Below, piece after piece: positions 28,716 through 63,631 of a DNA stretch of 64,000 nucleotides (position 1 is the first letter of the stretch; every line of letters begins with the position of its first letter). The notes beneath the pieces are model-generated. The model made no database searches, was not told the DNA's origin, and was given only the letters and a program-made list of their open reading frames with translations. Both the position numbers and the translations under genes were made by a program. This stretch comes from Thermoplasmata archaeon (GTDB lineage: Archaea > Thermoplasmatota > Thermoplasmata > Thermoplasmatales > GCA-001856825), in NCBI GenBank assembly GCA_021792255.1, contig JAJYUZ010000002.1, positions 349,071-413,070 of the forward strand, read 5' to 3'.

Positions 28716-28972
28716 AGAGTCCATATGACATTCTTCTGAAGCCATTCGTTACAGAAAAAACGATGTTGCAGATAGAGAGGGACAACAAGATATGGTTCAT
28801 CGTCAACGAGAAAGCAACGAGGGACCAGATAAAGAGAGCGGCCGAGGAGATTTCTGGTATGAAGATAACAAACGTAAACATTCTGAGGGACAAGGAAGGA
28901 AAGAAAGCAGTCGTCAAGATTTCCAAAGATTTTTCTGCGGAGGAGCTGGCTACAAAGCTGGGGATATTCTGA
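28703..28972 (+). CDS. rpl23: 50S ribosomal protein L23
   Basis: PFVTEKT, GKKAVV, ELATKLGIF; synteny. Confidence 0.93.
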   Translation: MEVLKSPYDILLKPFVTEKTMLQIERDNKIWFIVNEKATRDQIKRAAEEISGMKITNVNILRDKEGKKAVVKISKDFSAEELATKLGIF

Positions 28973-28981
28973 GGTGAAAAC

Positions 28982-29695
28982 ATGGGAAAGAGAATAGTTG
29001 TTCAGAGAAGAGGAAAGGGCGGACTCATGTACAGGAGTCCGAGTCACAGGCATTACGGTCAAATCAAGTATCCGACTGAAAAGAACTGGGAAGGAAGAGT
29101 CGAGAAGCTGGTCAGGGATCCAGGTCACTATGCACCAGTTGCTGTCGTCAGGATGAATGACGAGAGCAACAGGAATTTCATAGCTCACAGTGGTATGTTC
29201 ACTGGACAGAAGATAAGGGGAGGTCTGGACGTTCCCTCTGGAGTTGGCAATACCCTACCACTCGGTTTGATCCCCGATGGTTCTACAGTCTTCAACGTAG
29301 AGGTCAGACCAGGATCCGGTGGCAACATAGCCAGGACTCCGGGGGCGTACTGTACGGTCGTAGCCCATGGGGAAAATGTCACACTCAAACTTCCCTCAGG
29401 AAAGATGAGGGACATCAAGCCGTCGTGTCTAGCGACGATCGGCGTCACCGGTGGGGGAGGAAGAAATTCAAAGCCGTTCCTGAAGGCAGGTAAGAAGATA
29501 CACGCTTACTCGAGCAGAGCAAAGCGCCCATTCTCTGTCAGAGGAATTGCGATGAACGCAGCCAACCATCCGCACGGTGGCGGAAACCATCAGCACGTGG
29601 GAAGGCCATCCACGGTGGGTAGAAATACTCCTCCTGGAAGAAAGGTAGGAAGACTTTCCCCGAGAAAGAAGGTGAAGACAAATGCCGGAAGATAA
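28982..29695 (+). CDS. rpl2: 50S ribosomal protein L2
   Basis: MGKRI..QRRGKG, RGIAMNAANHPHGGG, PPGRKVG. Confidence 0.96.
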   Translation: MGKRIVVQRRGKGGLMYRSPSHRHYGQIKYPTEKNWEGRVEKLVRDPGHYAPVAVVRMNDESNRNFIAHSGMFTGQKIRGGLDVPSGVGNTLPLGLIPDGSTVFNVEVRPGSGGNIARTPGAYCTVVAHGENVTLKLPSGKMRDIKPSCLATIGVTGGGGRNSKPFLKAGKKIHAYSSRAKRPFSVRGIAMNAANHPHGGGNHQHVGRPSTVGRNTPPGRKVGRLSPRKKVKTNAGR

Positions 29696-30137
29696 GAGAT
29701 TGAGATCACAGAAAGCGATTAAGAGGTCCAAGAGGAAGGCGACGAAGGCAATATCGGAGAGAGGGAAGGAGATACTCTACAGAGGCAAGACGCTGGATCA
29801 GTTACTTGCTTTAGATTTTCCCGAACTGCTCAAGACGGTGCCAGCCAGGGCAAGAAGATCCCTGAAGAGGGGGTACAACGTCGAACAGCAGAGACTTCAC
29901 GACAGGCTGCTGGAGGAAGACTCCGTGAAGACGAGAGTCAGGGACCTGATCATAATTCCTCAGTACGTGGGGAAGACGATATCCGTTTACAACGGCCACC
30001 TTTATCAGACATTCACGATTAAGGAAGAGATGATTGGTCATTACCTGGGGGAATTCTCCCAGACGAGGAAAGAAGTGAAACACTCCGGACCCGGAGTGGG
30101 GGCTACTAGAGGATCGAAGTTCCTCCCCCTGAAGTGA
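29682..30137 (+). CDS. rps19: 30S ribosomal protein S19
   Basis: EMIGHYLGEFSQTRKEVKHSGPGVGATR. Confidence 0.95.
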   Translation: MPEDKRLRSQKAIKRSKRKATKAISERGKEILYRGKTLDQLLALDFPELLKTVPARARRSLKRGYNVEQQRLHDRLLEEDSVKTRVRDLIIIPQYVGKTISVYNGHLYQTFTIKEEMIGHYLGEFSQTRKEVKHSGPGVGATRGSKFLPLK

Positions 30138-30146
30138 GGTCTTGAA

Positions 30147-30599
30147 ATGAAATACGTAATAGAAACTGATAAGAAAAAAAGTGCAAGGGCGACGTCAGTG
30201 AACACTCCCATCTCCCCGAGGGACGCTCTAGAGGTGGTCAGGACGGTCAAGGGGATGAAACTCGAGACGGCAAAGGATTACCTGGAGAAGGTCATATCCA
30301 AGACCAATGCAGTCCCGTACAGAAAATTCCTGGACTCGGTATCCCACAAGAGAGGAATCGGCTCCGGAAGGTATCCAGTGAGGGCTGCGAAATATGTTCT
30401 CGAAACATTGACTAATGCCGAAAATAATGCAGAATTCAAACAGCTGGACTCGGAAAAGCTAGTGATAAAGAACGCAGTCGCGCAGCCAGCACCTCCCATC
30501 AAGTACTACACGTACAAGGCGTTTGGATCTAGTGGACACTTTTACAGGGAGAGGGTACACATCCAGATTATTCTAGAAGAGTTGGAGGAGACAGAATGA
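30147..30599 (+). CDS. rpl22: 50S ribosomal protein L22
   Basis: GRYPVRAA, NAENNAE; synteny. Confidence 0.95.
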   Translation: MKYVIETDKKKSARATSVNTPISPRDALEVVRTVKGMKLETAKDYLEKVISKTNAVPYRKFLDSVSHKRGIGSGRYPVRAAKYVLETLTNAENNAEFKQLDSEKLVIKNAVAQPAPPIKYYTYKAFGSSGHFYRERVHIQIILEELEETE

Positions 30600-31249
30600 A
30601 GGAATTGAAGTTTCTTAAGGAAAACATCAGAAGGCAGCTTATCAAGGAATATCTAATTCAGGAAATCGGGGACGCGGGATTTGGAGGAGTCGACATCCAG
30701 AGGACCCCCCAGAACACTATAGTCATGCTCAGGGTAGAGCGACCCGGTCTAGTCATCGGAAGAAGAGGATCGAAGATAAAGAACATGGAGGCTACGCTGG
30801 AGAAGAAGTTTAGCCTGACGAGCCCACTGATCAAGGTCGAAGGAACCGAGGAACCCGGACTGAACGCCCAGATAATGGCACAGAAACTGGCGAGATCGAT
30901 AGAAAAAGGGTGGCACTTCAGGAGAGCGGGACACAGCATCCTCAAGAGGATAATGGACTCGGGAGCTAGAGGGGGACAAGTGAGGATGGGAGGTAAGCTG
31001 ACTGGAGAGAGGTCCAGGACCGTCAAGTACACATCCGGCAAGGTCATATCGTCCGGTTACCCTTCCGAATCTATCGAGAAGGGGTTTGCGGTCGCAATGA
31101 CGAAACCCGGTATCATAGGCATCACGGTAAAGATACTCAGAAAGAACGTAAAGCTGCCAGACGACATCCAGGTTCGCAAGGTCAATTTTGGGGAGGTGAC
31201 GGGCATTGGAGGAAATGAAGGCAAAATCGATCCGCAAGATGAGCAGTGA
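30596..31249 (+). CDS. rps3: 30S ribosomal protein S3
   Basis: RPGLVIGRRG KH motif, GWHFRRAG, GKLTGERSR. Confidence 0.95.
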   Translation: MKELKFLKENIRRQLIKEYLIQEIGDAGFGGVDIQRTPQNTIVMLRVERPGLVIGRRGSKIKNMEATLEKKFSLTSPLIKVEGTEEPGLNAQIMAQKLARSIEKGWHFRRAGHSILKRIMDSGARGGQVRMGGKLTGERSRTVKYTSGKVISSGYPSESIEKGFAVAMTKPGIIGITVKILRKNVKLPDDIQVRKVNFGEVTGIGGNEGKIDPQDEQ

Positions 31250-31406
31250 AGAGATGAAGAAGAAATACAACGATCTGCGAGAGGAACTGATGAGGGAGAG
31301 AGGGATATCAGCTATGGGAGGAGCTCCTCCGAGTCCTGGAAAGATAGAGTCACTGCGAAGACAGCTTGCCAGAATGGAAACGGTGATGAGGGAGATAGAA
31401 AAATGA
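31206..31406 (+). CDS. rpl29: 50S ribosomal protein L29
   Basis: MGGAPPSPGKI..LRRQLARMETV; TTG start 6 nt after GAGGTGA. Confidence 0.92.
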   Translation: MEEMKAKSIRKMSSEEMKKKYNDLREELMRERGISAMGGAPPSPGKIESLRRQLARMETVMREIEK

Positions 31407-31687
31407 AGGACGACAAGATTTTCAGAGACTTGACCCCACTCGACGAGATAGCCAGAGAATCTCAGGTCATAACGATCGAAACAGACAAAAGGAGATACGG
31501 GAAGTGGATGACAATAGTGTCTGGATTTGACCCGCACTCTGAAGACGTCAAAGAGCTGGCGAAAACGCTCAAGAAGAAAACGGCGACTGGTGGAACGGTC
31601 AAGGGAGAGAAGATAGAACTGCAGGGAGACCAGAGGGAAAAGGCAAAGAAGGTTCTCGAGGAAATGGGTTTTAAGGTCGAGGTCTGA
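31403..31687 (+). CDS. Translation initiation factor aIF1 (SUI1)
   Basis: RRYGKWMTIV, GGTVK, IELQGDQR. Confidence 0.92.
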   Translation: MKDDKIFRDLTPLDEIARESQVITIETDKRRYGKWMTIVSGFDPHSEDVKELAKTLKKKTATGGTVKGEKIELQGDQREKAKKVLEEMGFKVEV

Positions 31688-31689
31688 GA

Positions 31690-31947
31690 ATGAACGCTTA
31701 CCTTACCGATGTAATCGGTTACAAGATTAGAGTGATAAAACACACCGATCCGACTCTCGTTGGATTGGAGGGAAAAGTAGTGGACGAGCGAAAGAACATC
31801 CTGACGCTTGAGACGGAGAATGGCAAAAAGATTCTCCCCAAGACGAAGGGAATTTTGATGATTAATGATCAGAGCATGGACCTCGAGAAAATGAGGTTCA
31901 GGCCGGAAGACAAGATGAAAAAGATTAGGAGGAAGGGAAGGCAATGA
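31690..31947 (+). CDS. rnp1: Ribonuclease P protein subunit Rpp29
   Basis: GLEGKVVDE.KN, IPK-like LPK, RPED; synteny. Confidence 0.88.
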   Translation: MNAYLTDVIGYKIRVIKHTDPTLVGLEGKVVDERKNILTLETENGKKILPKTKGILMINDQSMDLEKMRFRPEDKMKKIRRKGRQ

Positions 31948-32270
31948 GGAACATAGGCATAGAAGTAAACGAACCCAAGGAAGAATGCACCGATTCGAAG
32001 TGCCCATTTCACGGGGAACTGGGAGTGAAATCCCCTGTCATAGAGGGGAAGATCACGTCGGTTTCCATGAAGGGTACGGTGACGGTCTTGAGGGAATATC
32101 TGAAGAAGAACGAGAAGTACGAGAGATACGAGAAGAGACGGAAGAAGTATCACGCACACCTCCCGGGTTGCATACACGTCAAGCTGGGAGACGTCGTCAA
32201 GATAGCATATGCAAGGCCACTGGCCAAGTCAGTATCGTTCGTGGTAATAGAGAAGGAGGAGAGACTGTGA
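31944..32270 (+). CDS. rps17: 30S ribosomal protein S17
   Basis: CPFHG, KYERYEKRR, RPLAKS. Confidence 0.95.
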   Translation: MRNIGIEVNEPKEECTDSKCPFHGELGVKSPVIEGKITSVSMKGTVTVLREYLKKNEKYERYEKRRKKYHAHLPGCIHVKLGDVVKIAYARPLAKSVSFVVIEKEERL

Positions 32271-32665
32271 AGGGACTGGCAGGAGTACAGATGAGGGGTC
32301 TCCCGCTGGGGGCAAACCTTGAGTGCGCAGATAACTCCGGTGCGAAGATGCTTTCTTTGATCAACGTGAAGGCATACCACAACACCAAGAGAAGAGTCCC
32401 GGCCGCGTCTGTCGGTGACATGATCGTTGCCTCAGTAAAGAGGGGATCTCCAGAAATGAGAAGAAAGGTGGTCTACGCTATCGTGATCAGACAGAGAAGG
32501 ACGTTCAGGAGACAGGATGGAGTGATGGTCGAATTTGAAGACAACGCAGCGGTACTGGTTCAAGACAACGGCGAAACCAGAGGGACCGAGATAAAGGGAC
32601 CGGTGGCGAAGGAGGCCGCCGAGAGATGGCCGAGGGTTGCCGCCCTCGCGAGTTCCATCGTGTGA
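32267..32665 (+). CDS. rpl14: 50S ribosomal protein L14
   Basis: CADNSGAK, EFEDNAAV, KGPVAKEAAERWP; true start GTG 32267. Confidence 0.95.
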   Translation: MKGLAGVQMRGLPLGANLECADNSGAKMLSLINVKAYHNTKRRVPAASVGDMIVASVKRGSPEMRRKVVYAIVIRQRRTFRRQDGVMVEFEDNAAVLVQDNGETRGTEIKGPVAKEAAERWPRVAALASSIV

Positions 32666-32675
32666 GGTGAAAGAG

Positions 32676-33134
32676 ATGAAAAACGTTAGCGTTCATCTGT
32701 CAAAGGACCTGATTTCAAAGTATGGAATCAAGAATTTTCCAGTAAGGAAGGGAGATCTCGTCAGGATAGTCAGAGGAGATGCTGAGAAGGACGAGAAACT
32801 GAACATCGTGGGAAAGGAGGGAAAGGTGATCAAGATAGTCACCGATGAGGGCAAAGTCATCATCGAAAACATAAACATAGCGAAGGCAGACGGAAAGATG
32901 AAACCGAGAAAACTTGACCCCTCTGCCGTCGTTCTTACCAAGCTTATCCTGGAAGACAAGAAGAGGAAGGAGAGGCTGACCAGGCTCGCATCCCTCAGGA
33001 ACAAGGTCGTGGAGGACGAGCCAGAGCCTGAACCCAAGGAACCAGAAAAGACTGAGGAGAAAGGCGAAGAGCCAGAGGCTCCCGCAGAAAAAGAGACAGA
33101 GGAAGAGGAAAAGGAGGAAGAAGAAAATGAGTAA
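32676..33134 (+). CDS. rpl24: 50S ribosomal protein L24 with acidic C-terminal tail
   Basis: KOW motif PVRKGDLVRIVRG; start ATG 32676 after GAGGTGA. Confidence 0.92.
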   Translation: MKNVSVHLSKDLISKYGIKNFPVRKGDLVRIVRGDAEKDEKLNIVGKEGKVIKIVTDEGKVIIENINIAKADGKMKPRKLDPSAVVLTKLILEDKKRKERLTRLASLRNKVVEDEPEPEPKEPEKTEEKGEEPEAPAEKETEEEEKEEEENE

Positions 33135-33831
33135 GCACGTCAAGAGACTTGCGTCGCCGACGACCTGGAAGCAACCGAGGAAGAAGTTCGCCTGGTCCGT
33201 CCGTTCCCGGGCAGGACCACATCCGCTCAAAGCGAGCGTTCCTCTCATGGTCGTGATAAGGGACGTACTGAAGTTTGCCGACACATCCAAGGAAGCGAGA
33301 AACATAATAACCAAAGGAAAAGTGGAAGTGGATGGCAGAGTCGTGAAGGACTACCAGAGACCCGTTGGATTCATGGACGTTCTGTCCGTGAAGGATTCAG
33401 GGGTCGCAAAGAGGGTACTGATGGATAAGAAGGGTACGCTGATTCTTGCTGATCTGAACTCACAAGAAGTTAACTGGAAACTGGTAAAAGTGACAGGGAA
33501 GACTATAGCAAAGGGTGGCAAGATACAGATCGCAACCCACGACGGGAGGGTAATTCTCTCCAGCGAGGAGAACGTAAAGAGGGGAGACACCCTGAAGATC
33601 AGTATTCCGGACCAAAAGATACTGGAAGTCTATCCGATGGCAAAGGAAACGTCCGTATATGTTACGGGCGGAGCTCACAAGGGGACGATAACGACGATCA
33701 AAGAAATTAACGTCTCTAGAAGCTACCAGGAGAATACGGTGGAGAGCAACGACAACTTTACGACCACCATGTCAAACGTATTCGTGCTTGGAAAATCCAA
33801 GGGCGAGATAACGATCCCAGGAGGCGCTTAG
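33127..33831 (+). CDS. rps4e: 30S ribosomal protein S4e
   Basis: KHVKRLASP, GPH, VDGRVVKD..PVGFMDV, HDGR. Confidence 0.95.
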   Translation: MSKHVKRLASPTTWKQPRKKFAWSVRSRAGPHPLKASVPLMVVIRDVLKFADTSKEARNIITKGKVEVDGRVVKDYQRPVGFMDVLSVKDSGVAKRVLMDKKGTLILADLNSQEVNWKLVKVTGKTIAKGGKIQIATHDGRVILSSEENVKRGDTLKISIPDQKILEVYPMAKETSVYVTGGAHKGTITTIKEINVSRSYQENTVESNDNFTTTMSNVFVLGKSKGEITIPGGA

Positions 33832-33832
33832 A

Positions 33833-34351
33833 ATGGTGGACATGAGAGACGTAGTAATCGACAAAGTCACGATAAACATAGGTGTGGGAGAATCGGGAGA
33901 AAAGCTGGAGAAGGCAAAGAGCGTCCTCAAACTTCTGACCACCGGAAATCCCACGATCACAAAGGCAAAGAGAACCAGCAGAGAATTCGGATTGAGAAGG
34001 GATCAGCCTATCGGGGTCAAGGTCACTCTGAAGGGAGAGGAGATGGACAGGTTCCTCAAGACCGCCCTGTGGGTCAAGAACAACAAGTGCCTGAGCTACT
34101 CCTTTTCGGAGCAGGGAAGCTACAGCTTTGGCATCGCAGACTACACGGATTTCAAGGGTATGAAGTACAACCCGGAGATCGGAATTTTCGGGATGGATGT
34201 GGTCGTCACTTTCAAGAGAAGAGGTGGCTACAGGGTAGCGAGAAGATGGATAACTCCGCGCCCAGTTCCGAAGAAGATCAGGGTCAAAAGGGAAGAAATG
34301 ATGAAATTCATGAAGGAAAACTACAACGTAGAGATTCTGGAGGTGGGATGA
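33833..34351 (+). CDS. rpl5: 50S ribosomal protein L5
   Basis: KVTINIGVGESGEKL, YNPEIGIFGMDV. Confidence 0.95.
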   Translation: MVDMRDVVIDKVTINIGVGESGEKLEKAKSVLKLLTTGNPTITKAKRTSREFGLRRDQPIGVKVTLKGEEMDRFLKTALWVKNNKCLSYSFSEQGSYSFGIADYTDFKGMKYNPEIGIFGMDVVVTFKRRGGYRVARRWITPRPVPKKIRVKREEMMKFMKENYNVEILEVG

Positions 34352-34513
34352 GTGACGCAGACTAAGCTTGCCCCAAAGAAGAAGTACGGCAGGAAGGAAG
34401 GGTGCGAAAGGTGCGGAAGGAAGAGGGGTCTAGTGAGAAGGTATAACCTTCATCTCTGCAGGCAGTGCTTCAGGGAGATAGCTCCCGAGCTGGGGTTCGA
34501 GAAATATTCGTGA
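34352..34513 (+). CDS. rps14: 30S ribosomal protein S14 (zinc type)
   Basis: Read by hand: [36 protein letters not shown]; absent from ORF track. Confidence 0.93.
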
Positions 34514-34522
34514 GGTGAAAGA

Positions 34523-34906
34523 ATGGGAGATACGTTAAACGATGCATTAATTTCCATTAAGAACGCTTCTAAGCTGGGAAGACAGGAACTTGACGTCAGG
34601 GCGTCAAATCTAGTTGGAAGGGTACTTCGCGTGTTCCAGAAGTATGGCTACATCGAGGAGTACGAATACGTGGAAAACGGGAAGGGTGGATTATTCAAGG
34701 TAAAGGTTGCGAAGACCGTCAATAACTGCGGAGCCATCAAGCCAAGATTTTCAATAAAGAGGGACGAACTGGAAAGGTGGGAGTCGCGATACCTTCCGGC
34801 CCAGGATATAGGAATCCTGGTCATATCCACCACTTCTGGTGTGATGAGCAACGCGGAAGCGAAGAAAAAGGGAACCGGAGGAAAGGCGCTTGCCTTCATC
34901 TACTGA
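34523..34906 (+). CDS. rps8: 30S ribosomal protein S8
   Basis: NNCGAIKPRF, YLPA, STTSGVM. Confidence 0.95.
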   Translation: MGDTLNDALISIKNASKLGRQELDVRASNLVGRVLRVFQKYGYIEEYEYVENGKGGLFKVKVAKTVNNCGAIKPRFSIKRDELERWESRYLPAQDIGILVISTTSGVMSNAEAKKKGTGGKALAFIY

Positions 34907-34916
34907 GGTGATATGA

Positions 34917-35450
34917 ATGGAAAGAATAATAGAGATTCCCCAGGGTGTGAAGGTGAAGATACAGGGTTTCGAATTCGAAGCCCAGGGTGCGAGGGGTAAG
35001 GTCACGAAAACGTTCAGGAACGAATACGTTTCTGTCGAAATGAAGGACAAGAAGATCAGGGTATTCACCAAGAGAGAAAAGAAAACGGATACGGCAGTCG
35101 TCGGCACTTGGGAGAGCATAATTAAGAGCTCCTTTACTGGAGTCACGAAGGGCTTCATTTACACGATGAAGATCGTCTATGCCCACTTCCCGGTGAAAGT
35201 GACGGTCAAGGGAAATCAGGTGCTTCTAGACAACTTCCTCGGGGAGAAGAGTCCGAGAAAGATAACGCTCGGACCAGACACAAAGGTCACAGTCAAGGGA
35301 GATCTCGTCACAGTCGAAGGGAGTGATCTCGAAGTGACAGGTAATGCCGCTGCAAGGATAGAAAAGATGAGCAAGATCAAGGGATTCGATCCTAGGGTAT
35401 TCCAGGATGGAATCTACATTGTAAGGAAGGGTGATGTTATTGAAGGCTGA
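34917..35450 (+). CDS. rpl6: 50S ribosomal protein L6
   Basis: YAHFPV, NFLGEK, DPRVFQDGIYI. Confidence 0.95.
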   Translation: MERIIEIPQGVKVKIQGFEFEAQGARGKVTKTFRNEYVSVEMKDKKIRVFTKREKKTDTAVVGTWESIIKSSFTGVTKGFIYTMKIVYAHFPVKVTVKGNQVLLDNFLGEKSPRKITLGPDTKVTVKGDLVTVEGSDLEVTGNAAARIEKMSKIKGFDPRVFQDGIYIVRKGDVIEG

Positions 35451-35835
35451 ATTGGATAAGGAAGGAAAGAGACTGTTAGGAATCAGGAACAAAATGAACA
35501 GGAAGAGACCCGAATTTCACAGACAGGAATGGTTCAGGTATCAGAGGCTCGGAACGTCTTGGCGGAAGCCGAGAGGAAAACACTCAAAGCTGAGGGAAAA
35601 GAAGGGCTACAGGCACGCCTGGGTGGAGTCTGGGTACAGAGGACCCGTCAGAGTCAGGAATCTGCATCCGTCTGGATTCGAGGAAGTGTACGTTACCAGC
35701 ATCACAGATCTGGAGAAGATCAACCCTAAGCTGCAGGCTGCGAGAATCAGCTCGACGATAGGGATGAGGAAGAGAAGATTCATACAGGAGAAAGCAAAGG
35801 CTGCAGGCATAAGACTCCTCAACGAGGTGAAATGA
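35431..35835 (+). CDS. rpl32e: 50S ribosomal protein L32e
   Basis: WRKPRGKHSK, LHPSGFEEV. Confidence 0.95.
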   Translation: MMLLKAELDKEGKRLLGIRNKMNRKRPEFHRQEWFRYQRLGTSWRKPRGKHSKLREKKGYRHAWVESGYRGPVRVRNLHPSGFEEVYVTSITDLEKINPKLQAARISSTIGMRKRRFIQEKAKAAGIRLLNEVK

Positions 35836-36290
35836 TGGCGACCCTTAGTCCACAGAAGAGAATGGCCGCATCTATTCTCAAGTCCGGAATGTCAAGAGTC
35901 TGGATGGACACAAAGAGTATCGACGACATTGCTGAGGCGGTTACGAGGGACGACATCAGGAAGCTCATAAAGAAAAACGTCATCCAAAAGAGGTCCGCAA
36001 AGGGTAACTCTAGGGGCAGGTTCAAGGTCGCGAAGGCCCAGAGAAACAAGGGACGAAGAAAAGGTCCCGGATCGAGAAAGGGAACCAAGAACGCAAGGGA
36101 TCCCAGAAAGAGGAAATGGATAAGGAGCATAAGATCGATGAGAAATTCCCTGAAGGAGATGAGAGATTCCGGGAAAATAACGAGGACCGACTACAGGGTA
36201 TTCTACAAGAAGATCAAGGGAGGCGCGTTCCGGAGCAGAAACGCCCTGCTGCTTCACATGAGGGAAGAGGGAGTTCTCAAGGGTGAGTGA
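35832..36290 (+). CDS. rpl19e: 50S ribosomal protein L19e
   Basis: QKRMAA, TRDDIRKLI, KGRRKGPGSRKG. Confidence 0.95.
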   Translation: MMATLSPQKRMAASILKSGMSRVWMDTKSIDDIAEAVTRDDIRKLIKKNVIQKRSAKGNSRGRFKVAKAQRNKGRRKGPGSRKGTKNARDPRKRKWIRSIRSMRNSLKEMRDSGKITRTDYRVFYKKIKGGAFRSRNALLLHMREEGVLKGE

Positions 36291-36789
36291 AATGAGATCA
36301 AGATACGTTATGCCGCTGAAGCGGAGAAGGTTGAAGAAAACCGATTACAAGAAGAGGCTCGCACTCATCAAGGGCGGTATGCCCAGGGCGATCGTAAGAA
36401 GGTCGCTGAAGAACATGAATGTCGATATAGCAGAGTACGCCGTCAGTGGGGACAAGATCGTGGCCCACGGGTCTACGGTGGAACTGAAGAAGTTCGGCTG
36501 GAAGAGCCCGACGGGAAACACTCCGTCTTCGTATCTTGCGGGGTATCTCGCGGGATTGAGGGCAAAGAAGAAGGGGATAAAGAAGGTGATCGTGGACCTT
36601 GGCAGGCAGAAGGTGATAAAGGGTGGCAAACTCATGGCCAGCGTCCAGGGTCTGCTGGACTCGGGACTGAAGGTCCCGGTGAGCAAGAAGTTCCTGCCCA
36701 ATAAGGACAGGCTTGCAGGAAAACACCTTAAGACAATTCAGGAAAATGCGATGGATGAAGTGAAGAAAGCGATGGAGGAATCACTGTGA
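36283..36789 (+). CDS. rpl18: 50S ribosomal protein L18
   Basis: [23 protein letters not shown]. Confidence 0.95.
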
Positions 36790-37472
36790 CTAAAGACGCA
36801 ATTGAGTGGATACCCAAAACGAGACTTGGAAAGATGGTCAAAGAGGGCAAGATCAAGTCAATATCCGAAGTCCTTGGCACGCACATGCCGATAAGGGAAT
36901 CCGGAATCGTTGACACCCTTGTTCCCAACCTGGAGGATGAGGTAATCGAGATCAAGATGGTCCAGAAGATGTCAGACTCAGGAAGAAAAGTCAAGTTCGC
37001 TGCGACCGTCGTAATAGGAAACAAGGACGGATACGTGGGCATGGGTCACGGCAAGGCAAGGGAGACGGGCGACGCAATACAGAAAGCCATAGAAAACGCA
37101 AAGATAAATCTCATCGAGATAAAGAGGGGGTGCGGATCCTGGGAGTGTGGATGTGGAAGGAGCCACACGCTTCCTTTCGAAGTTCTGGGAAAGTCGGGCT
37201 CGGTAAGAGTCTATTTGAAGCCAGCTCCGCAGGGAGTTGGACTGGCCATTGGTGACATACCGAAGAAGGTTCTGACTATCGCAGGAATCCAGGATACGTG
37301 GGGGTTTTCAGAGGGGCACACCAAGAGCACACTGAACTTCGCTTATGCAACGTTCAATGCCCTCAAAGAGACGTCTAAATTCAAGATAAATGAAAAGCTG
37401 AACCTCAGTACCCCGATATACAAGGGAGGTGTGATGAATGTTAGCAGTGATAAAAATCAGGGGAAGCAATAA
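36786..37472 (+). CDS. rps5: 30S ribosomal protein S5
   Basis: [27 protein letters not shown]. Confidence 0.95.
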
Positions 37473-37920
37473 AACGGAAGTTGGAATTAGAAGGGCATTC
37501 CAGGAGCTGAGACTCACGAGGAACAATCACCTCGTCTTGGTGGACGAGTCTCAAATAGGGCAGATCAAGAAAGCAAAAGATTACGTGACGTGGGGAGAGG
37601 TTGACGAGGAACACGTGGTCAAGCTACTCCAGGAAAAGGGAAGAATGACGGGCGGAAAACCCCTGGACGACGCGGTTTTGAAGGAACTCGGGTTTGCCAC
37701 GATTAACGAGATGGCATCCAAGCTTCTCGACGGCAGTCTCAGGGTAAAGGACATAGAGGGCATGAAGCCAGTCTTCAGAATGAACCCTCCCAGAAGGGGA
37801 TATCATTCGACTAAAAGGACCTACAAGCTCAAGGGCGCCCTGGGATACAGGGGAAAGGACATAAACAAACTCATAGACGCTATGCTGGAAGGTGGTAAGA
37901 GTGGTCAAGGAGAAAACTAA
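37438..37920 (+). CDS. rpl30: 50S ribosomal protein L30
   Basis: [28 protein letters not shown]. Confidence 0.94.
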
Positions 37921-38341
37921 GAAATACAGAGGAACGTACTACGGGAGGGGAAAGAAGGCCGGTAGGGGGAAGGGAAAGAGAGGAGGAAAAGGAATGGCTG
38001 GCCTGGGAAAGCACAGGTGGATCTGGATGGTTAAGAACATGCCTGACCACTATGGCAGCCATGGGTTCGTGAGGCACTCCCAAAAGGTAGAAGTCAAGGC
38101 GATAAACGTGGGAGATCTTGACAGGACCTCGGAAAGACTGATCGAAACCGGAATGGCACGGATGGAAGAGGACAAGGTCAGAGTGGATCTCGAAAAGATG
38201 GGGTATGCAGTCCTTCTCGGAGGAGGACAGGTTGGGAAACCATTGCTGATCAAGGTAGGAAGGGCAACAGAAAAGGCTAAAGAAAAAATTAAGAGCGCAG
38301 GGGGAGAGGTAGAAACTAATGGCGGAGATAAAGAGGAATAG
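37892..38341 (+). CDS. rpl15: 50S ribosomal protein L15
   Basis: RGGKGMAG, AKEKIKSAGG. Confidence 0.94.
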   Translation: MVRVVKEKTKKYRGTYYGRGKKAGRGKGKRGGKGMAGLGKHRWIWMVKNMPDHYGSHGFVRHSQKVEVKAINVGDLDRTSERLIETGMARMEEDKVRVDLEKMGYAVLLGGGQVGKPLLIKVGRATEKAKEKIKSAGGEVETNGGDKEE

Positions 38342-56093: not shown

Positions 56094-56936
56094 ATGGTCC
56101 AAGACGGAGGATTACTGGGTGGAAGGCTTTTCCAATATTTGGACGAGCTGCTCGTGAAGCTACGCGGTACTATAATTCTCTTTATGCTGCTTTTCTTTGC
56201 GATGTTCCTCCTTGGACCGGTTACTTTCAAGTTCGACGGATTCACTCTATTTTACCTTATCCCGTCCTTCTATCACAGCTTTTCAGTTATCCTGCTTCAA
56301 CTATTGGAAAAGAGTCTTGTACCGCACAAGATGATACTCATCAACATCTCTCCCTTCGACATAGTCGTAAGCGTCGTGTATATTTCACTCGCGGTCTCGA
56401 TTTCAGTGATCATTCCGATACTCGCTTTCCAACTAATAAATTTCTCTAAGTCTGCGCTATATCCAAAAGAAAGGAAAATTGTAAGTTTCTCCATATTTCC
56501 AATAATTCTACTGTTTATTGTCGGGGTAATTTTTGCACTAAGGTTGATAATACCGATTCTCTTCAGTGTGATATTTCTATTCGCAATCGATGTGGGGGTC
56601 CTTCCAACCCTTGGGATACTGCAGTTCGTCTCGATTGTTGTACTGATCACTGCAGGAATGGGGGCAATATTCGAAACACCAGTTATCGTGTTTTCCCTAT
56701 CATACGTAGGCGCTGTGCCGCCATCACTCTGGTTCAAGAATTGGAGATACGCCATTATTGGAGCTTTTTTTATTGCGATGCTGATTTCTCCCGGAGCAAC
56801 GGGCGGTATAATGGAAGTGACAATTGCACTGACGATAATTGGTCTTTATTTTTCAGGTGCGATCCTGGCCAGATGGATTGTAAATGAGAAGACTAAGTCT
56901 GACGAAAAAGGAATAGGGACAAAGGGTGAAGAATGA
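56094..56936 (+). CDS. tatC: Twin-arginine translocase TatC
   Basis: LDEL..KLR, ALYPKER, FETPV, WRYAI; 6 TMs. Confidence 0.88.
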   Translation: MVQDGGLLGGRLFQYLDELLVKLRGTIILFMLLFFAMFLLGPVTFKFDGFTLFYLIPSFYHSFSVILLQLLEKSLVPHKMILINISPFDIVVSVVYISLAVSISVIIPILAFQLINFSKSALYPKERKIVSFSIFPIILLFIVGVIFALRLIIPILFSVIFLFAIDVGVLPTLGILQFVSIVVLITAGMGAIFETPVIVFSLSYVGAVPPSLWFKNWRYAIIGAFFIAMLISPGATGGIMEVTIALTIIGLYFSGAILARWIVNEKTKSDEKGIGTKGEE

Positions 56937-57744: not shown

Positions 57745-57942
57745 CTACTTCTGAGGAGCTGGGGTTGCTGTCTCTAGCTTCGTGGCCTCGTTTATTTCCC
57801 GTTCCACTTCCATTTTTCCTTTCCGAAACTCGCCCATCGCCCGACCCATTGCTTTTGCGACCTCAGGTATCTTCTTCGCTCCGCCAAGAACAAGCAGAAC
57901 GACCACAATGAGTATGATCCAGTCTGTTGGACTTTCTAGCAC
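57745..57942 (-). CDS. tatA: TatA family protein (copy 1)
   Basis: DWIILIVV..LGGAKKIPEVAKAMGRAMGEFRKG; start GTG 57942 inferred. Confidence 0.9.
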   Translation of the reverse strand: MLESPTDWIILIVVVLLVLGGAKKIPEVAKAMGRAMGEFRKGKMEVEREINEATKLETATPAPQK

Positions 57943-58285
57943 CGATATCGGATTTAAGCCGTCTATATTAACGTAATGGTAACTCATGTCATAAGGTAGG
58001 AATCACCAAAATCTTTACTAGACCTCACGATGCTGCTCTGATCGATGATCTGCTGCTAAATACCTAAAACAAAGGATAGGAAGCACGAGTACTCATCTTT
58101 TCTTCTAGTGATTCAAACGAATAGACCTAAATGCACATTTCTACGTAAAAACATACTGCGTTCTTCAATTTGTGATAGTCAAAAATCAAAATTTTTGATA
58201 TGTTGCTCTCAGTCACTCCCTTAGATAAAGTGAGAAAAATTGCTGATAGGCTATTTAGCAGACTTCGGTACTGTAGTTAAAGACA

Positions 58286-58453
58286 TTATTTTTCTATCTG
58301 TTCCAGCTCTTTTTCGACTTCTTTCTTTCCCTTGTCGAATTCGCCTTTTGCACGACCCAGACTCTTTGCCAATTCCGGAATCTTCTTTGCGCCCCCAAGT
58401 ACGACGAGGGCAACTACTATTAGTATTATCCAGTCAGTGGCACTTCCTATCAT
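58286..58453 (-). CDS. tatA: TatA family protein (copy 2, 55 aa)
   Basis: Read by hand: MIGSATDWIILIVVALVVLGGAKKIPELAKSLGRAKGEFDKGKKEVEKELEQIEK. Confidence 0.9.
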   Translation of the reverse strand: MIGSATDWIILIVVALVVLGGAKKIPELAKSLGRAKGEFDKGKKEVEKELEQIEK

Positions 58454-58830: not shown

Positions 58831-59394
58831 TCATTGAGTACCTTTAATTCTGACGTATCCTTCACCTAATTGTTGTTCAAATTCTTTATAGCCGTATACA
58901 GTAAGGAAGCACTTCGCTCCTTCTGCAGTCAACTTGGAGGCAGTGATGCTATAACCGCTTCCTATCATTAAGACTTCCACGTCATCATCGACTCTCCTTA
59001 TTTCGAGTCTGTCAGTGGGGAGAAAGGACTCAAATTCTTGAACGAGTTTGGATAAGTCGTCGATGCTTTTCGCAATTCCCTTGACCAATTCTCCGAATAT
59101 CCTTCCCCTATCGCACCACATCTTCATCATATCTTCTTCAGCACATTTAACGGCTGCGGTCACGCTTAAGTCCAACATAATCGCTGAAATTGGGACCGCA
59201 CCAATGGACTTGGATATTTCGTGAAATCTTATCATGCTTTCAATCTGATCTTTACTAATGTGATTCTTCTTCAATTTCTCGTACAGATCTACGGATTCAG
59301 TTATAACAGACCCGATGGTCTTACCTTCTTCTTTGCTCAGTTCTTGAATTCCTTTTGCTTGTTCGTTTGAGAGAGAAATATTGAGTCTTGCCAT
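58831..59394 (-). CDS. Ribbon-helix-helix regulator with C-terminal V4R-like sensor domain
   Basis: N-terminal RLNISLS beta-strand plus two helices (EEGKTIGSVITES); C-terminal domain assignment is inference. Confidence 0.65.
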   Translation of the reverse strand: MARLNISLSNEQAKGIQELSKEEGKTIGSVITESVDLYEKLKKNHISKDQIESMIRFHEISKSIGAVPISAIMLDLSVTAAVKCAEEDMMKMWCDRGRIFGELVKGIAKSIDDLSKLVQEFESFLPTDRLEIRRVDDDVEVLMIGSGYSITASKLTAEGAKCFLTVYGYKEFEQQLGEGYVRIKGTQ

Positions 59395-59533: not shown

Positions 59534-60979
59534 ATGATTCCAGAAAAGACATTTTACGCGATTGTGGTTGCCTTGATAATTGTGGGAGGAGTGGGTATAG
59601 GAGTTGCGTACGATCACGCAGTTTCTGTTACCACCCAACCTAATCCCAATAATCATGGAAATCAAACAACGCAAAGTGCATACTACCCACTGACCATCGC
59701 GATAACTACTAACAACCAGTTTAACAGTACGATCGGAGCCCAACCTGCGTTCTTTGTTTTAAAAGACGGTAAACTTCTGTCAACAGCTAATATCAGCCTT
59801 CCCGCAAATAAGCAGATAAATCTGACCATCATAAACTACGATGACGGAAGTGCCCCAACTCCAGCTCAATACGACAAGGTTGTCGGAACGGTTAACAGTC
59901 AGATAACGATATTTAACAATACCAACGTCAACTCGACTTTCAATGGACAAAGCATTAATGTTGTAGGTGGCGAGAAAGTTACAATAGTTCCAAACGGCAC
60001 TGTGGCCCACACATTTACGATACTGAACGGGTCAACTACAGTCGTAAACATCCCCATAACACCCTCCTCAATAACACAGACCTCATTCACACTCAGTTCT
60101 GGTAGCTACACCTGGCAGTGTGAAGCTGCCTGCGGTTCAGGCTCTTCTGGATGGGAAGGAGCTATGTCAACTCCAGGATGGATGGCAGGAACGGTCTACG
60201 TTTCTGGATCTGTACCTGCACCCATATCCCAGATATACTACGCGACTCTCGTAATCACCACGGAAAATTTCTATAACTCTACGGTTGGAAACCAACCAGC
60301 CTTTTTCTTGCTACAAAATGGGACCTTGTACTCAACGGCCGTGCTGAATTTTCCTTCCAATAAGGAAATAGGACTCACTATAATCAATTATGATGATGGT
60401 AATGGATCCACTCCAGCACAGTTTTCCAATGTGACAGGAACAACCGGTAATCAGATATCGATTGTGAACAATACAAACGTAAATTCTACCGAAGGTAGCG
60501 GCAGTATTAACGTGGTTGGAGGGGCCTCGGTCTCTCAAGTTCCGGATTCAAACATTGCTCATACGTTCACAGTTCTAAGTGCGAGTAACAGTGTCGTATT
60601 GAACATTCCAATAGTACCTTCTAGCACAGAATTTGCAACTTTTACTCTGAACTCAGGAAACTACAGCTGGCAGTGTGAAGCAGCTTGTGGCTCAGGCTCT
60701 TCCGGATGGGAAGGAGCTATGTCAACTCCAGGATGGATGGCAGGAACGGTCCTAGTATCGGCTTCCTTGTCTGCACAAGCATTCTACAATACGCCTGCTG
60801 TGATTCAATCATTATCTCACCTCTTCGAAATTAATGATCTGCTATCTTCTTCGACAGGTCTGAGTCTACTCGTGCACTCAATGATCCTGATCCACTCAAC
60901 TGTGGCCTCATTCAACATAGGCAAAGCAGCTGTCGCGACTCAGTCTCTAAATATGCAGAGCGCGGTCCACGTTTCATGA
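59534..60979 (+). CDS. Membrane-anchored tandem cupredoxin-like glycoprotein
   Basis: N-terminal TM; two ~185-aa repeats, each with LTIINYDDG, AHTFT and GxYxWQCEAACG..GAMSTPGWMAGTV; many N-x-S/T sequons. Confidence 0.75.
   Translation: MIPEKTFYAIVVALIIVGGVGIGVAYDHAVSVTTQPNPNNHGNQTTQSAYYPLTIAITTNNQFNSTIGAQPAFFVLKDGKLLSTANISLPANKQINLTIINYDDGSAPTPAQYDKVVGTVNSQITIFNNTNVNSTFNGQSINVVGGEKVTIVPNGTVAHTFTILNGSTTVVNIPITPSSITQTSFTLSSGSYTWQCEAACGSGSSGWEGAMSTPGWMAGTVYVSGSVPAPISQIYYATLVITTENFYNSTVGNQPAFFLLQNGTLYSTAVLNFPSNKEIGLTIINYDDGNGSTPAQFSNVTGTTGNQISIVNNTNVNSTEGSGSINVVGGASVSQVPDSNIAHTFTVLSASNSVVLNIPIVPSSTEFATFTLNSGNYSWQCEAACGSGSSGWEGAMSTPGWMAGTVLVSASLSAQAFYNTPAVIQSLSHLFEINDLLSSSTGLSLLVHSMILIHSTVASFNIGKAAVATQSLNMQSAVHVS
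60149..60751 (+). repeat. Perfect 48-nt direct repeat (60149-60196 and 60704-60751)
   Basis: ggatgggaaggagctatgtcaactccaggatggatggcaggaacggtc occurs twice, 555 bp apart. Confidence 0.9.
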
Positions 60980-60983
60980 GGGG

Positions 60984-61688
60984 ATGCGTCTGAAGTCTAC
61001 CGAAAGAGCACCAGATGAACAAAAAAGAAACTTCCTCAAGATAATGGGGACTCTAATCATAGGTGTCGGAATGGTGGGAACGCTGAGGAGTGTAGTGCAG
61101 TACATTATTCCACCTTCGACGCAGGCTGAAACGTCCTTTCCGGTTTTAACTCTAGTCTTAGCGAACGGTAACCCTATTCACACTTCGGATTTGATTGTCA
61201 ACAATTCTGCGACCGTGACCTTTGATTATCCTCTTCAGGGTGAACCAAATTTTCTCTTGAGACTTGGAGATTCTGGCAACACTGATGTCAAAATCCCGCC
61301 ATCAAAGGTCTCAATACCATCAACCGGGGGGTCGTACCAGTCACCAGGCGGAGTCGGACCCTACGGCTCCGTTGTTGCGGCTTCTGCAATCTGTGAGCAT
61401 CTAGGTTGCGTTCCTCCGGAGATAAAATTCTTTCCTCCGTCTTCCTCGACCACCCCAGGAAAAATACACTGCAGCTGTCACGGAAGCACTTACGATCCTT
61501 ACTCGGGCTTCAGTGTAGTCACTGGTCCGACGAGGATTCCACTGCCGAGTCTGGTGCTATCGTATGACTCAACTCAGGACACATATGCGGCCACAATGAT
61601 GGTGGGTCCAACTCTATACGGTCACACATCTGATCTGTCTGGAGGAAATGCAATCACGACGAAGGGTACCGTCGTGAGCACCACATAA
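60984..61688 (+). CDS. Rieske iron-sulfur protein (SoxL-like)
   Basis: Tat-like KRNFLK; CEHLGC and CSCHGSTYDP; GP...PLP. Confidence 0.92.
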   Translation: MRLKSTERAPDEQKRNFLKIMGTLIIGVGMVGTLRSVVQYIIPPSTQAETSFPVLTLVLANGNPIHTSDLIVNNSATVTFDYPLQGEPNFLLRLGDSGNTDVKIPPSKVSIPSTGGSYQSPGGVGPYGSVVAASAICEHLGCVPPEIKFFPPSSSTTPGKIHCSCHGSTYDPYSGFSVVTGPTRIPLPSLVLSYDSTQDTYAATMMVGPTLYGHTSDLSGGNAITTKGTVVSTT

Positions 61689-61699
61689 GAGGGAATGCT

Positions 61700-63304
61700 A
61701 TGGCTAAACAAAATTTGTTAGAAAAGGTGATGAACGAACCGCAGCCTCTCCCTAGGAAAGTTCCGGATTACATGCGAAAGAAGGGAGGGATATGGTACTG
61801 GACAGGAGCAATACTCATGATAACATTTCTCTACGAATCCTTGACAGGTCTCATTCTACTGTTCTATTATCAACCTGCCCATCCATACAGTAGCACCGGC
61901 ACGATCCTAGCTATGCCCTATGGAACAGTGCTGCTGACGACTCACCTCTATGCAGCGTACATAATGATCGCTTTTCTCTACATTCATCTTCTCCGAAATC
62001 TATTCGTTGGTGCGTACAAGAAACCGCGCCAGATGCAGTGGTTGACCGGTATTCTCCTACTTCTAGTCACTATCGGAGTGGTCTATTTCGGATACTCTAT
62101 GTCTGGTGACGTCCTCTCTGCAGACGCCACGGACGTCGGAAGGGGAATAGCTGCTGGAGCTCCATTGATAGGATCATACTTGAGATCAATATTCTTTGGA
62201 TCGGGCACCTCTCTCTCTCTTTTTATGAGACTGGAGGGATGGCACATAGTTTTAGCAGGGGTCATCTTGGCAATGTTTGCACTTCACTTTTACCTAGCGG
62301 AGTACAATACAATTATGCCGTCTCCGAAACATGCGGAATTCAAAGTTCCTGCGGTGGACAATGACGATCCTTCTTACAAGCCATGGTATCCATACAATCT
62401 CCTTTACATGGGTCAGGTATCATTTTTTACGCTGGCAATGATATTCATCATACCCTCTGTCTTGGCTATACTTCCCAATGTTCCCGTACTGTTCTCGCCA
62501 TTTCCTCAGGTTTCGGTTTCTAGCCCACTAGCCTCCTCTGTGCCTGCCTATCCTCCGTGGATTCTCTTGTTTATCTACAAGGAGTTGGATTTTGGTATAT
62601 CCTCTATAATAGGTCCATTCTGGGCTTCCCTTATATTCATAGGTCTCCCAGTGGGTTATCTTCTTTTCATTCCCTATCTGGACAGGAATGATTCTCTCAA
62701 GCTGTCAAGGAGAAAAGCGGTCTTGTACACAGGTATCTTGGGTCTTTTTTATTACATCGGCCTCTCGGTCTGGGGTGCGATGGAACCAGGAGTACCGGTC
62801 AGCAACCTGGTGGGGTTTCTGTTTTTTGCAGTACCAATGCTAGTGGTCATCCCTGTGTCGCTATACATGATCAAGAAAGTCGAAGCAGCGAAATCGAACT
62901 TGGGAAATAACCTGTGGAAACTGTATTCGATCCTGCCGGTCATAGGATTTTTGGCCATACTTGTGGGCATTACGAGCTACATGTTCTTGGATGGTCTAAG
63001 CTATTACGACCTTGCTGCGCTTATCTTTGTCCTAGTACTACTTGCCATTTCTTCACTATATGCATACGGTTGGATATACGGAATCAAGGAAAATACGAAG
63101 AACATCAAGATGAGTGAAAGGGGACACCTTGTATTTGGCGGTATCTACGGTTTCCTTGCCATTGTAATCTTCACCATGATATCAGATATTCCTCCCACAA
63201 AAGTCGAGTACCAAGCTCTCTATGGAATCGGTATCGGGTTGCTGTTCGTCCTTGGAGGTGCCTTTACAAAACTGTATAGATCCTATGCCTATCACGAGGG
63301 TTAG
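61700..63304 (+). CDS. Cytochrome b of a Rieske/cyt b complex (SoxN-like, extended C-terminus)
   Basis: Two H-x13-H heme helices, GAYKKPR..WLTG, PPWI (PEWY-equivalent); many TMs. Confidence 0.92.
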   Translation: MAKQNLLEKVMNEPQPLPRKVPDYMRKKGGIWYWTGAILMITFLYESLTGLILLFYYQPAHPYSSTGTILAMPYGTVLLTTHLYAAYIMIAFLYIHLLRNLFVGAYKKPRQMQWLTGILLLLVTIGVVYFGYSMSGDVLSADATDVGRGIAAGAPLIGSYLRSIFFGSGTSLSLFMRLEGWHIVLAGVILAMFALHFYLAEYNTIMPSPKHAEFKVPAVDNDDPSYKPWYPYNLLYMGQVSFFTLAMIFIIPSVLAILPNVPVLFSPFPQVSVSSPLASSVPAYPPWILLFIYKELDFGISSIIGPFWASLIFIGLPVGYLLFIPYLDRNDSLKLSRRKAVLYTGILGLFYYIGLSVWGAMEPGVPVSNLVGFLFFAVPMLVVIPVSLYMIKKVEAAKSNLGNNLWKLYSILPVIGFLAILVGITSYMFLDGLSYYDLAALIFVLVLLAISSLYAYGWIYGIKENTKNIKMSERGHLVFGGIYGFLAIVIFTMISDIPPTKVEYQALYGIGIGLLFVLGGAFTKLYRSYAYHEG

Positions 63305-63455
63305 TCGATGGAATGATGGTGTGTACAGACTCTCTAGGAAGGGCGCATGCCTCGAATTGCAATTCCTTGACAGAAATGGAGAGCATCAACGGGTCCTCTT
63401 CCTTGAGCCTATGGAGTCACACTGCTTTCGAATCGTGGAGGATTCTAGTCTATGA
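63285..63455 (+). CDS. Small hypothetical protein (56 aa)
   Basis: Overlaps the cyt b stop; ATGA overlap with the next ORF. Confidence 0.4.
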   Translation: MPITRVSRWNDGVYRLSRKGACLELQFLDRNGEHQRVLFLEPMESHCFRIVEDSSL

Positions 63456-63631
63456 AAACTATTGAGATACTCTGTCCAAAATGCGGATCGAAGAGTCTGA
63501 CTGCTAAAGAACCATCGGAGGTCGATTTTGTCTGTGACCTAGCGATTCCTTTCATCTGTAAATCGTGCGGATACAATGGGTTGATAAGTGTTTGCAGGAG
63601 AGACGGGAGCGTCCAGGTTCAGCTAAAGTGA
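63452..63631 (+). CDS. Small zinc-ribbon protein (59 aa)
   Basis: Read by hand: CPKCGS...CKSCGY; SD GGAGGA upstream. Confidence 0.65.
   Translation: MKTIEILCPKCGSKSLTAKEPSEVDFVCDLAIPFICKSCGYNGLISVCRRDGSVQVQLK

Follow-up and report, generated by a model that had tools for sequence, protein, structure and literature searches.

A tandem cupredoxin with CuA-like domains heads a Rieske–cytochrome b operon in a Thermoplasmata archaeon

In archaea without c-type cytochromes, the electron acceptor of the Rieske protein is settled in few lineages only. This question is raised by a locus in a 64,000-nt stretch of the Thermoplasmata archaeon assembly GCA_021792255.1 (contig JAJYUZ010000002.1, positions 349,071 to 413,070 of the forward strand; hereafter the window, to which all positions refer unless a genome contig, C3 or C7, or a numbered locus, L, is named), where the gene of a tandem cupredoxin directly precedes the genes of a Rieske protein and a cytochrome b. 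On balance, we favour the reading that this protein is the third subunit of a SoxL/SoxN-type Rieske–cytochrome b complex, a copper-bearing tandem cupredoxin that acts like cytochrome c1. It is already known that copper proteins take the place of archaeal c-type cytochromes: sulfocyanin in the SoxM supercomplex is such a replacement according to passages of PMC3750248, and parts of PMC7785015 describe plastocyanin-like carriers in ammonia oxidisers. Our literature searches yielded no description of the present family, of its His/Cys2/Met2 ligand set or of its position as the leading gene of Rieske/cytochrome b operons. A table in the supplement of PMC3750248 gives unnamed 'Cupredoxins' for E-, G- and I-plasma under a cytochrome c oxidase heading, and these may or may not be family members.

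The tandem cupredoxin and its operon

The first gene of the unit (P0001; 59534..60979, + strand) is supported by its open reading frame (ORF), its translation, homologues of the same architecture and independent contigs. It runs from an ATG at 59534 to a stop ending at 60979 and encodes 481 residues. A longer frame from a TTG at 59453 would add 27 residues; since these are common to no homologue, the start was taken as 59534. The translation agrees exactly with the two repeats given in a preliminary description of this DNA, with AHTFT at residues 158–162 and 342–346 and WQCEAACGSGSSGWEGAMSTPGWMAG at residues 194–219 and 379–404. Repeat 1 (residues 47–228; 59672..60217, +), supported by an AlphaFold2 model, fold matches and a CuA alignment, carries H159, C196, C200, M211 and M217, and repeat 2 (residues 231–415; 60224..60778, +), supported by repeat identity and our alignments A1 and A2, carries H343, C381, C385, M396 and M402. 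The repeats are identical at 116 of 181 residues (64%), and at the DNA level a 136-nt stretch recurs with 82% identity at a spacing of 555 nt. Within each repeat His occurs once and Cys and Met twice each, always in the motifs, and the Cys at 196, 200, 381 and 385 are the only four of the whole protein.

A third, decayed partial repeat, which the preliminary description passed over, follows at residues ~416–481. This C-terminal tail (60779..60976, +) corresponds to the first third of a repeat and has no ligand residues, and it aligns with the start of the third repeat in the homologues P0006 and P0007 (595 and 601 aa), which contain three complete repeats; the repeat number in the family thus ranges from one to three. 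The same stub is found in P0005, a 90%-identical homologue from another sample. A full-length model (18-row alignment, mean predicted local distance difference test score, pLDDT, of 59.6) was used for the N-terminal helix and the unstructured tail only: it places a hydrophobic helix at residues 4–25 (59543..59608, +), a predicted membrane anchor that also contacts cytochrome b in the complex model described below, and gives residues 412–481 a pLDDT below 50, with no confident fold of the tail. The protein contains 15 N-x-S/T sequons; by sequon density it ranks among the top 2.8% of 1034 long ORFs of the genome, but the number is only ~1.9 standard deviations (SD) above a composition shuffle (mean 10, SD 2.7), and glycosylation is plausible from these sequons.

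The stretch including the cupredoxin–Rieske junction shows zero differences in contigs from four runs of three studies, and the identical contigs include pieces that bridge the third-repeat stub and the Rieske gene. A 48-nt piece common to both repeats has about twice the depth of the neighbouring sequence, which fits two full repeat copies. The contig support is only partly independent, because several of the runs may be the source of the assembly. This DNA derives from mine-drainage, tailings and sediment metagenomes.

The Rieske gene (60984..61688, +) starts 4 nt after the cupredoxin stop, and the cytochrome b gene (61700..63304, +) starts 11 nt after the Rieske stop, so the ORF coordinates agree with the tight packing reported earlier. 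The Rieske [2Fe-2S] protein, with the boxes CEHLGC and CSCHGSTY, matches PF00355 at 2e-05 and TIGR03171 (soxL2) at 1.9e-59. As soxL2 is its best-scoring model but its 201 bits lie below the cut-off of 582, we regard it as SoxL2-like and not as an equivalog. In our alignment of 20 sequences (A3) C163, C165, H166, G167, S168 and Y170 of box II are invariant. In Rieske proteins of the bc1 type, high potential is associated with the Ser and Tyr of this box; both are retained here, as had been noted from HGSTY. The cytochrome b is a long archaeal form of 534 aa, SoxC/SoxN-like, that matches PF13631 at 4.4e-42 and NF041076 (cyt_b_SoxC) at 4.2e-107, the latter over residues 5–532 with 359 bits against an equivalog cut-off of 740. 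Its C-terminal helices form the predicted docking site of the cupredoxin anchor.

A motif scan of the four proteins of the unit as first drawn, up to position 63631, revealed no CxxCH haem motif, in line with the preliminary description. Three of these four genes stand. The fourth, a zinc-ribbon ORF of 59 aa with four Cys (63452–63631, +), lies 148 nt past cytochrome b with the contig end 369 nt beyond. It was rejected as a member and is probably outside the unit, since none of 80 related loci carries a homologue; this genome contains one paralogue of it (C7:255330–255512).

We modelled cytochrome b, the Rieske protein and cupredoxin residues 1–228 together, with an alignment for each chain. 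The model scored 0.66, and the best of three controls 0.00. The mark of 0.66 is reached by 116 of 157 solved complexes and by 2 of 215 mismatched pairs, a calibration that is rough for this model, as it used its own alignments and three chains, unlike the calibration set. At least 37% of the contacts agreed between runs, and the partner had a pLDDT of at least 68. The confident contacts join the anchor helix (residues 4–29) to the last helices of cytochrome b (residues 469–534). The multimer modelling that had been suggested for this locus thus supports, as a model, a docking of the cupredoxin on cytochrome b in a shared complex.

Kinship with CuA domains and conservation of the family

Searches of Pfam, NCBIfam and PDB sequences with the whole protein yielded nothing useful, and known families were reached only by the single domain and by a family profile. 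The AlphaFold2 model of repeat 1, built on an alignment of 66 sequences, has a pLDDT of 93.2 and a predicted template modelling score of 0.89; the metal loop lies at pLDDT 97–98 and an Asn-rich insertion at ~65. The Foldseek matches listed and the top rows of a second fold search (VIA) are cupredoxins only: a nitrite reductase domain (Z 10.2), nitrosocyanin (Z 9.7), Cupredoxin_1 of Bacillus anthracis (4hcf, Z 9.7), the iron-uptake cupredoxins FtrB (Z 9.4) and EfeO (Z 9.3), rusticyanin (Z 9.2), the Cu(I) chaperone CupA (4f2e; Z 8.5, root-mean-square deviation 2.1, 88 residues aligned) and several COX2 chains (Z ~7–9). With a confident model and these matches, the cupredoxin fold proposed for each repeat holds. 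The Z values do not tell the cupredoxin subfamilies apart; sequence profiles do separate them.

The family profile matches the CuA domain of Thermus ba3 oxidase subunit II best (4.8e-9); the His and the two Cys pair up in this alignment, and the family has ~45 residues inserted before the His strand. A weak match to PF00116 was obtained for 26 of the 66 family members (best 9.9e-07) and to PF13473 for 22; in the whole 481-aa protein no PF00116 match appeared at E values up to 1, and the Pfam gathering threshold was not reached. Against the CoxII of this genome, which carries the canonical CVEYCGEYHYEM, hhalign gave a probability of 95.6. In this alignment H159 pairs with the His, C196 and C200 with both Cys, and M217 (in GWMAG) with the axial Met of YHYEM; the second His of CuA falls on Pro214, and the loop is ~10 residues longer than in CoxII, the extra residues including M211, which has no counterpart. 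The profile match to the sulfocyanin-like protein of the same genome is weaker (probability 81) and ends before the loop. From these profile alignments, the domains are derivatives of the CuA domain of oxidase subunit II that have lost the second His and have a longer loop with a second Met. The CuA-like H...C-x3-C-G with a missing second His and two following Met, first read from this protein alone, is a conserved family trait.

A search with repeat 1 in 1.84 billion representatives (clusters at 50% identity) yielded 264 clusters at E ≤0.001 and 145 at E ≤1e-10. The majority are single-domain proteins of 190–240 aa, found in Thermoplasmata, Nitrososphaeria, Thermoprotei and some bacteria. In the 66-sequence alignment (A2, its own numbering) both Cys (C150, C154), the Asp of NYDD and the Thr after the His are invariant, and H113, M165 and M171 are conserved at 90% or more. 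The H / C-x3-C-G / M / M pattern occurs in 166 of the 178 homologues examined, amounting to 197 domains, 187 of which carry H[TS][FL][TS] 20–60 residues upstream; in only five of the 197 does a His lie anywhere from the first Cys to the last Met. The 12 homologues without the motif are mostly fragments or frameshifted tails, and a short-loop variant, C-x-C-x-C-G...M...GWM, also occurs in the family. Named members (from A-plasma, Cuniculiplasma divulgatum, Thermoprotei and Actinomycetota) are all recorded as 'hypothetical protein', one automatic annotation among members reads COX2 periplasmic domain, and the ESM Atlas contributed, as leads, unnamed bacterial clusters only.

Place in the respiratory chain and rival explanations

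We surveyed the neighbourhoods of the 80 best loci on one-genome-per-species contigs, within the flanks available. The order cupredoxin–Rieske–cytochrome b, on one strand and with the cupredoxin directly upstream, was found at 23 of them, namely at all nine two-domain loci and at 14 of the 71 single-domain loci. The linked single-domain loci are labelled Thermoplasmata and Nitrososphaerales/Thaumarchaeota, so that the family is linked to respiratory genes in an order conserved across two archaeal phyla; since several of the linked loci are near-identical to each other, they do not represent 23 independent events. Two further loci have Rieske/cytochrome b genes nearby in another order. COX1 is adjacent at none of the 80 loci, with one COX1 fragment 5 kb off in L037. 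Bacterial-type members came from one metagenome scan (28 loci, mostly short, with 51 neighbour proteins scanned), and no consistent neighbours were found among these 51 except in the clusters L105 and L113. L113 is a further cupredoxin–Rieske–cytochrome b cluster. On L105 (2–2965), a metagenome contig of 64% G+C, the family member is followed by a Fer4_11 4Fe-4S dicluster protein (NrfC-like) and an NrfD-type protein, which is another kind of quinol-oxidoreductase module.

Two membrane proteins recur near family members. An unnamed protein of ~500 aa, with 12–14 predicted helices and no Pfam match, follows a stand-alone cupredoxin gene in six loci (L036:6596–8131, L040:6594–8183, L050:6647–8149, L101:587–2164, L103:5483–6988 and L084:3291–4757) and cytochrome b in two (L017:9222–10748 and L113:2826–4355). 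The one member sequence read, that of L103, contains a Cys-rich CxCxxC stretch (CQCEAC), and a distant relative lies in this genome at C3:331921–333264. The second, a polytopic protein of 650 aa with a C-terminal 4Fe-4S dicluster, is encoded at L084:4781–6733 and in this genome at C3:333235–335193 (−), the two being related at 4e-147. It adjoins the cupredoxin gene in genome G099; in the present genome it has the oxidase cluster on one side and a second Rieske/cytochrome b pair on the other.

Among 151 sampled genomes of the class (tallies include the unpublished genome G098) the family is present in 28. Cytochrome b was found in 27 of these 28 and in 26 of the 123 family-negative genomes, and COX1 in 22 of the 28. 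Three of the COX1-negative genomes belong to one genus, are 99% complete and combine the family with two cytochrome b genes; G099, one of the three, has its Rieske/cytochrome b genes 5.4 kb downstream of the cupredoxin gene, which precedes the genes of two polytopic membrane proteins; one of these proteins carries a 4Fe-4S dicluster domain.

The genome under study (93.55% complete) contains one haem-copper oxidase cluster, on contig C3, which encodes CoxII with a canonical CuA site, CoxI, a sulfocyanin-like type-1 protein with H...C-x2-H-x3-M and a haem O synthase; cytochrome bd was not found. CxxCH occurs in 24 of 4674 ORFs of the genome, none in an obvious cytochrome context. A second Rieske protein (241 aa) and cytochrome b (548 aa) are encoded at C3:336074–338455, ~5 kb past the oxidase cluster, and are 50% and 42% identical to the pair in the window. 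Two paralogues of the cupredoxin were found as well: a stand-alone single-domain protein of 237 aa with the full His/Cys2/Met2 motif (C7:297335–298048, −) and a degenerate one of 198 aa (C3:250251–250847, +) without the His, with WGDMCNCGPSM and the Cys pattern C-x-C. The single oxidase found is the most likely destination of electrons from either Rieske complex. The earlier argument that the operon lacks a cytochrome c and that its cupredoxin replaces c1 is sound as to the missing haem motif, but it leaves out the sulfocyanin-like protein, the second Rieske/cytochrome b pair and the stand-alone paralogue.

We propose the following path. The cupredoxin would be an extracellular protein anchored by one N-terminal helix that packs on the C-terminal helices of cytochrome b. 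Each domain retains three elements of the CuA site, namely the N-terminal His, the Cys-x3-Cys pair and the axial Met; its second His is gone, a longer Gly/Ser loop contains one more conserved Met, and we infer that copper is bound through these His/Cys2/Met2 residues. Quinol would be oxidised at cytochrome b and one electron passed to the Rieske cluster. The Rieske head would then deliver it to a copper centre in one of the two cupredoxin domains, so that the protein, which probably stands in for cytochrome c1, would do the work of the latter. From there the electron could move via the second domain, the stand-alone paralogue or the sulfocyanin-like protein to the CuA of the oxidase, or be transferred directly. 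The terminal acceptor would be the only terminal oxidase found in the genome, the CuA-bearing haem-copper oxidase. A redox role, this direction of flow and a relay through two domains would together make up this path.

Several observations weigh against this assignment. All confident contacts of the complex model are between membrane helices, and none of them joins the copper domain to the Rieske head. That the five ligand residues cluster is suggested by the CuA alignment, and on the oxidising outer face the Cys pair could instead be a disulfide. No Rieske/cytochrome b genes lie within the flanks of 55 of the 80 related loci, which further qualifies the c1 replacement, and the neighbours of stand-alone copies (33 loci) are mostly housekeeping genes: 57 flanking proteins from 26 of these 33 loci show no respiratory or copper theme, with YceI and HTH_10 genes recurring. 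Six of the 28 family-positive genomes have no COX1 match, so that the acceptor cannot always be a haem-copper oxidase. Within this genome the second Rieske/cytochrome b pair has no adjacent cupredoxin gene in front, and the canonical sulfocyanin-like carrier could serve both Rieske complexes.

A more far-reaching version of the copper subunit is possible, and we put it forward tentatively. The site might be an undescribed natural centre, a CuA-derived Cu2(Cys)2 core with Met in place of the acid-labile His, which would stay intact at pH ~1 on the outer face of wall-less archaea and serve in a relay from Rieske to oxidase. Exposed His ligands of cupredoxins are acid-labile, and the loss of an exposed His with a choice of thioether ligands would suit copper retention at a very low external pH. 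The tandem would then be a fixed two-step relay, doing with copper what the di-haem cytochrome cc does in actinobacterial supercomplexes, and the widespread single-domain paralogues an overlooked carrier, the 'cytochrome c' of lineages said to lack one between complexes III and IV.

Copper trafficking or tolerance would put the same residues to another use: the protein would bind Cu(I) as CupA does and hand it to membrane proteins or keep it from them, with the respiratory link secondary. CupA (4f2e) is indeed among the fold matches, but its Z of 8.5 is not above those of many redox cupredoxins, and although soft Cys/Met ligands predominate, it is redox CuA ligands that match the axial Met and the conserved His-Thr-Phe-Thr strand in the alignments. 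The 55 of 80 loci apart from respiratory genes and the members in genomes without COX1 would suit such a role; the 4- and 11-nt spacing and the order conserved in two phyla point instead to a shared complex, whose model passes its controls. A chaperone would find no client in the operon, as neither Rieske nor cytochrome b is a copper protein. A metal-rich habitat of mine drainage, tailings and sediment fits trafficking, as does the ~500-aa protein of 12–14 helices after the gene in six loci, with the CxCxxC stretch of its L103 member, but no copper ATPase gene occurs among the 57 and 51 flanking proteins, which are the nearest genes of part of the loci only. We consider this explanation unlikely.

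Slimmer still are the chances that the cupredoxin is an entry point for external electrons, where Fe(II) or another donor would be oxidised and the complex run in reverse for quinone and NAD(P)H reduction. Such reverse feeding has been proposed for the Ferroplasma Rieske–cytochrome b complex, according to part of a review, and agrees with the mine-drainage habitat; the sequence, however, bears no mark of an iron site, and the family occurs in lineages described as non-iron-oxidising such as Cuniculiplasma divulgatum, iron oxidation being unconfirmed for Cuniculiplasma isolates in the relevant passage of PMC5155288. The matches to rusticyanin (Z 9.2), FtrB (Z 9.4) and EfeO (Z 9.3) are not above those to other cupredoxins.

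That the protein is a metal-free structural subunit like quinol oxidase subunit II (CyoA), with the fold kept, the centre lost and a Cys disulfide stiffening an exposed loop at low pH, is very improbable. In its favour, part of the canonical ligand set of CuA is absent, disulfides can form from the Cys pair of apo-CuA (PDB 4txv is, by its title, a mixed disulfide of TlpA and oxidase subunit II), the paralogue at C3:250251–250847 has no His and a C-x-C pattern, and the metal loops fall below pLDDT 50 in the shallow full-length model. Against it, the deeper alignment models the loop at pLDDT 97–98, the motif residues are the only His, Cys and Met of each repeat, and 187 of 197 domains of archaea and bacteria retain the His jointly with both Cys and both Met, which a disulfide alone hardly explains.

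If the family is, as we favour, a copper carrier, it closes a gap in the respiratory chains of numerous acidophilic archaea and perhaps also of certain bacteria. On Cuniculiplasma strain PM4, the authors of PMC5155288 state that the route from complex III to complex IV is not predictable; a family member of Cuniculiplasma divulgatum is on record as a hypothetical protein. A comparative study of acid-mine Thermoplasmatales gives, in the part concerned, no rusticyanin or sulfocyanin gene for I-plasma (PMC3750248); a single-domain family member is nevertheless encoded on the I-plasma contig L023 (5932–6621). Should the domains be His-poor CuA variants, they would serve as a natural experiment on the tuning of potential and acid stability by CuA ligands, and a soluble domain of ~180 residues makes this question directly testable.

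Several features of the window surround the operon. A TatC gene (56094–56936, +; PF00902 at 1.8e-27) and two TatA/E genes (57745–57987, − and 58286–58453, −; PF02416 at 2.5e-13 and 2.3e-12) lie 1–3 kb upstream. Rieske proteins are Tat substrates as a rule, and in G099 TatC and TatA likewise stand beside the Rieske/cytochrome b genes. A 187-aa ORF without a Pfam match (58831–59394, −) diverges from the region upstream of the operon. Farther off, positions 28001–38000 have a G+C content of 0.49–0.51 against ~0.44 elsewhere and a strong purine excess on the + strand (GC skew 0.16–0.25, AT skew 0.25–0.33).

Comparison with known systems

The closest known relative is the CuA domain (PF00116; Thermus ba3 subunit II, 1ehk/2cua), with which each repeat shares the cupredoxin fold, the His of the HxF strand, Cys-x3-Cys-Gly and the final Met; both proteins also combine an N-terminal membrane anchor with an outward domain. 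The canonical CuA motif is given in the pertinent section of PMC6189053 as Hx34Cx3Cx3Hx2M. Here the spacing between His and Cys is 36 and not 34, the second His is absent (Pro214), the loop is ~10 residues longer with an extra conserved Met, and ~45 residues are inserted before the His strand. The domain is moreover duplicated, and its gene stands beside Rieske/cytochrome b and not beside COX1, which lies with a canonical COX2 on contig C3.

Sulfocyanin (SoxE) and other type-1 carriers resemble the protein as membrane-anchored extracellular cupredoxins of an acidophile without c-type cytochromes, and in the proposed place between a Rieske/cytochrome b complex and CuA. In contrast to the type-1 blue copper sites of sulfocyanin, rusticyanin and plastocyanin, each repeat has two Cys and one His and does not match H...C-xn-H-xn-M; unlike sulfocyanin, the protein is a tandem and is encoded with Rieske/cytochrome b rather than with the oxidase.

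CupA has a site rich in Cys and Met and shares the cupredoxin fold, whereas the present family has a conserved His, a CuA-aligned axial Met and a link to a quinol oxidoreductase, not to a copper pump. A CuA-like site from a non-canonical ligand set is described for the cupredoxin PmoD in part of PMC6189053. The PmoD site, formed between two monomers from Cys41, Met49 and His51, is located elsewhere in the fold, whereas in the present protein the residues belong to a single domain and to its canonical CuA loop.

In the Sulfolobus CbsAB–SoxLN complex, CbsA is an extracellular redox protein with heavy glycosylation, and the genes of a SoxL-type Rieske protein and a SoxN-type cytochrome b accompany its gene. 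According to PMC13741234 CbsA is a b-type cytochrome and not a cupredoxin. The Rieske protein described here scores best with the soxL2 model.

Finally, the protein can be set beside cytochrome c1 and the di-haem cytochrome cc of actinobacterial bcc complexes. It has no haem motif and an unrelated fold, copper would be its cofactor, and its anchor is N-terminal, while that of cytochrome c1 is C-terminal. The likeness that we propose would lie in a third gene packed with those of the Rieske protein and cytochrome b, in a single membrane helix carrying outward redox domains, and in the tandem as two such domains in a row, comparable with the di-haem c1 in the III–IV supercomplex described in part of PMC5040959.

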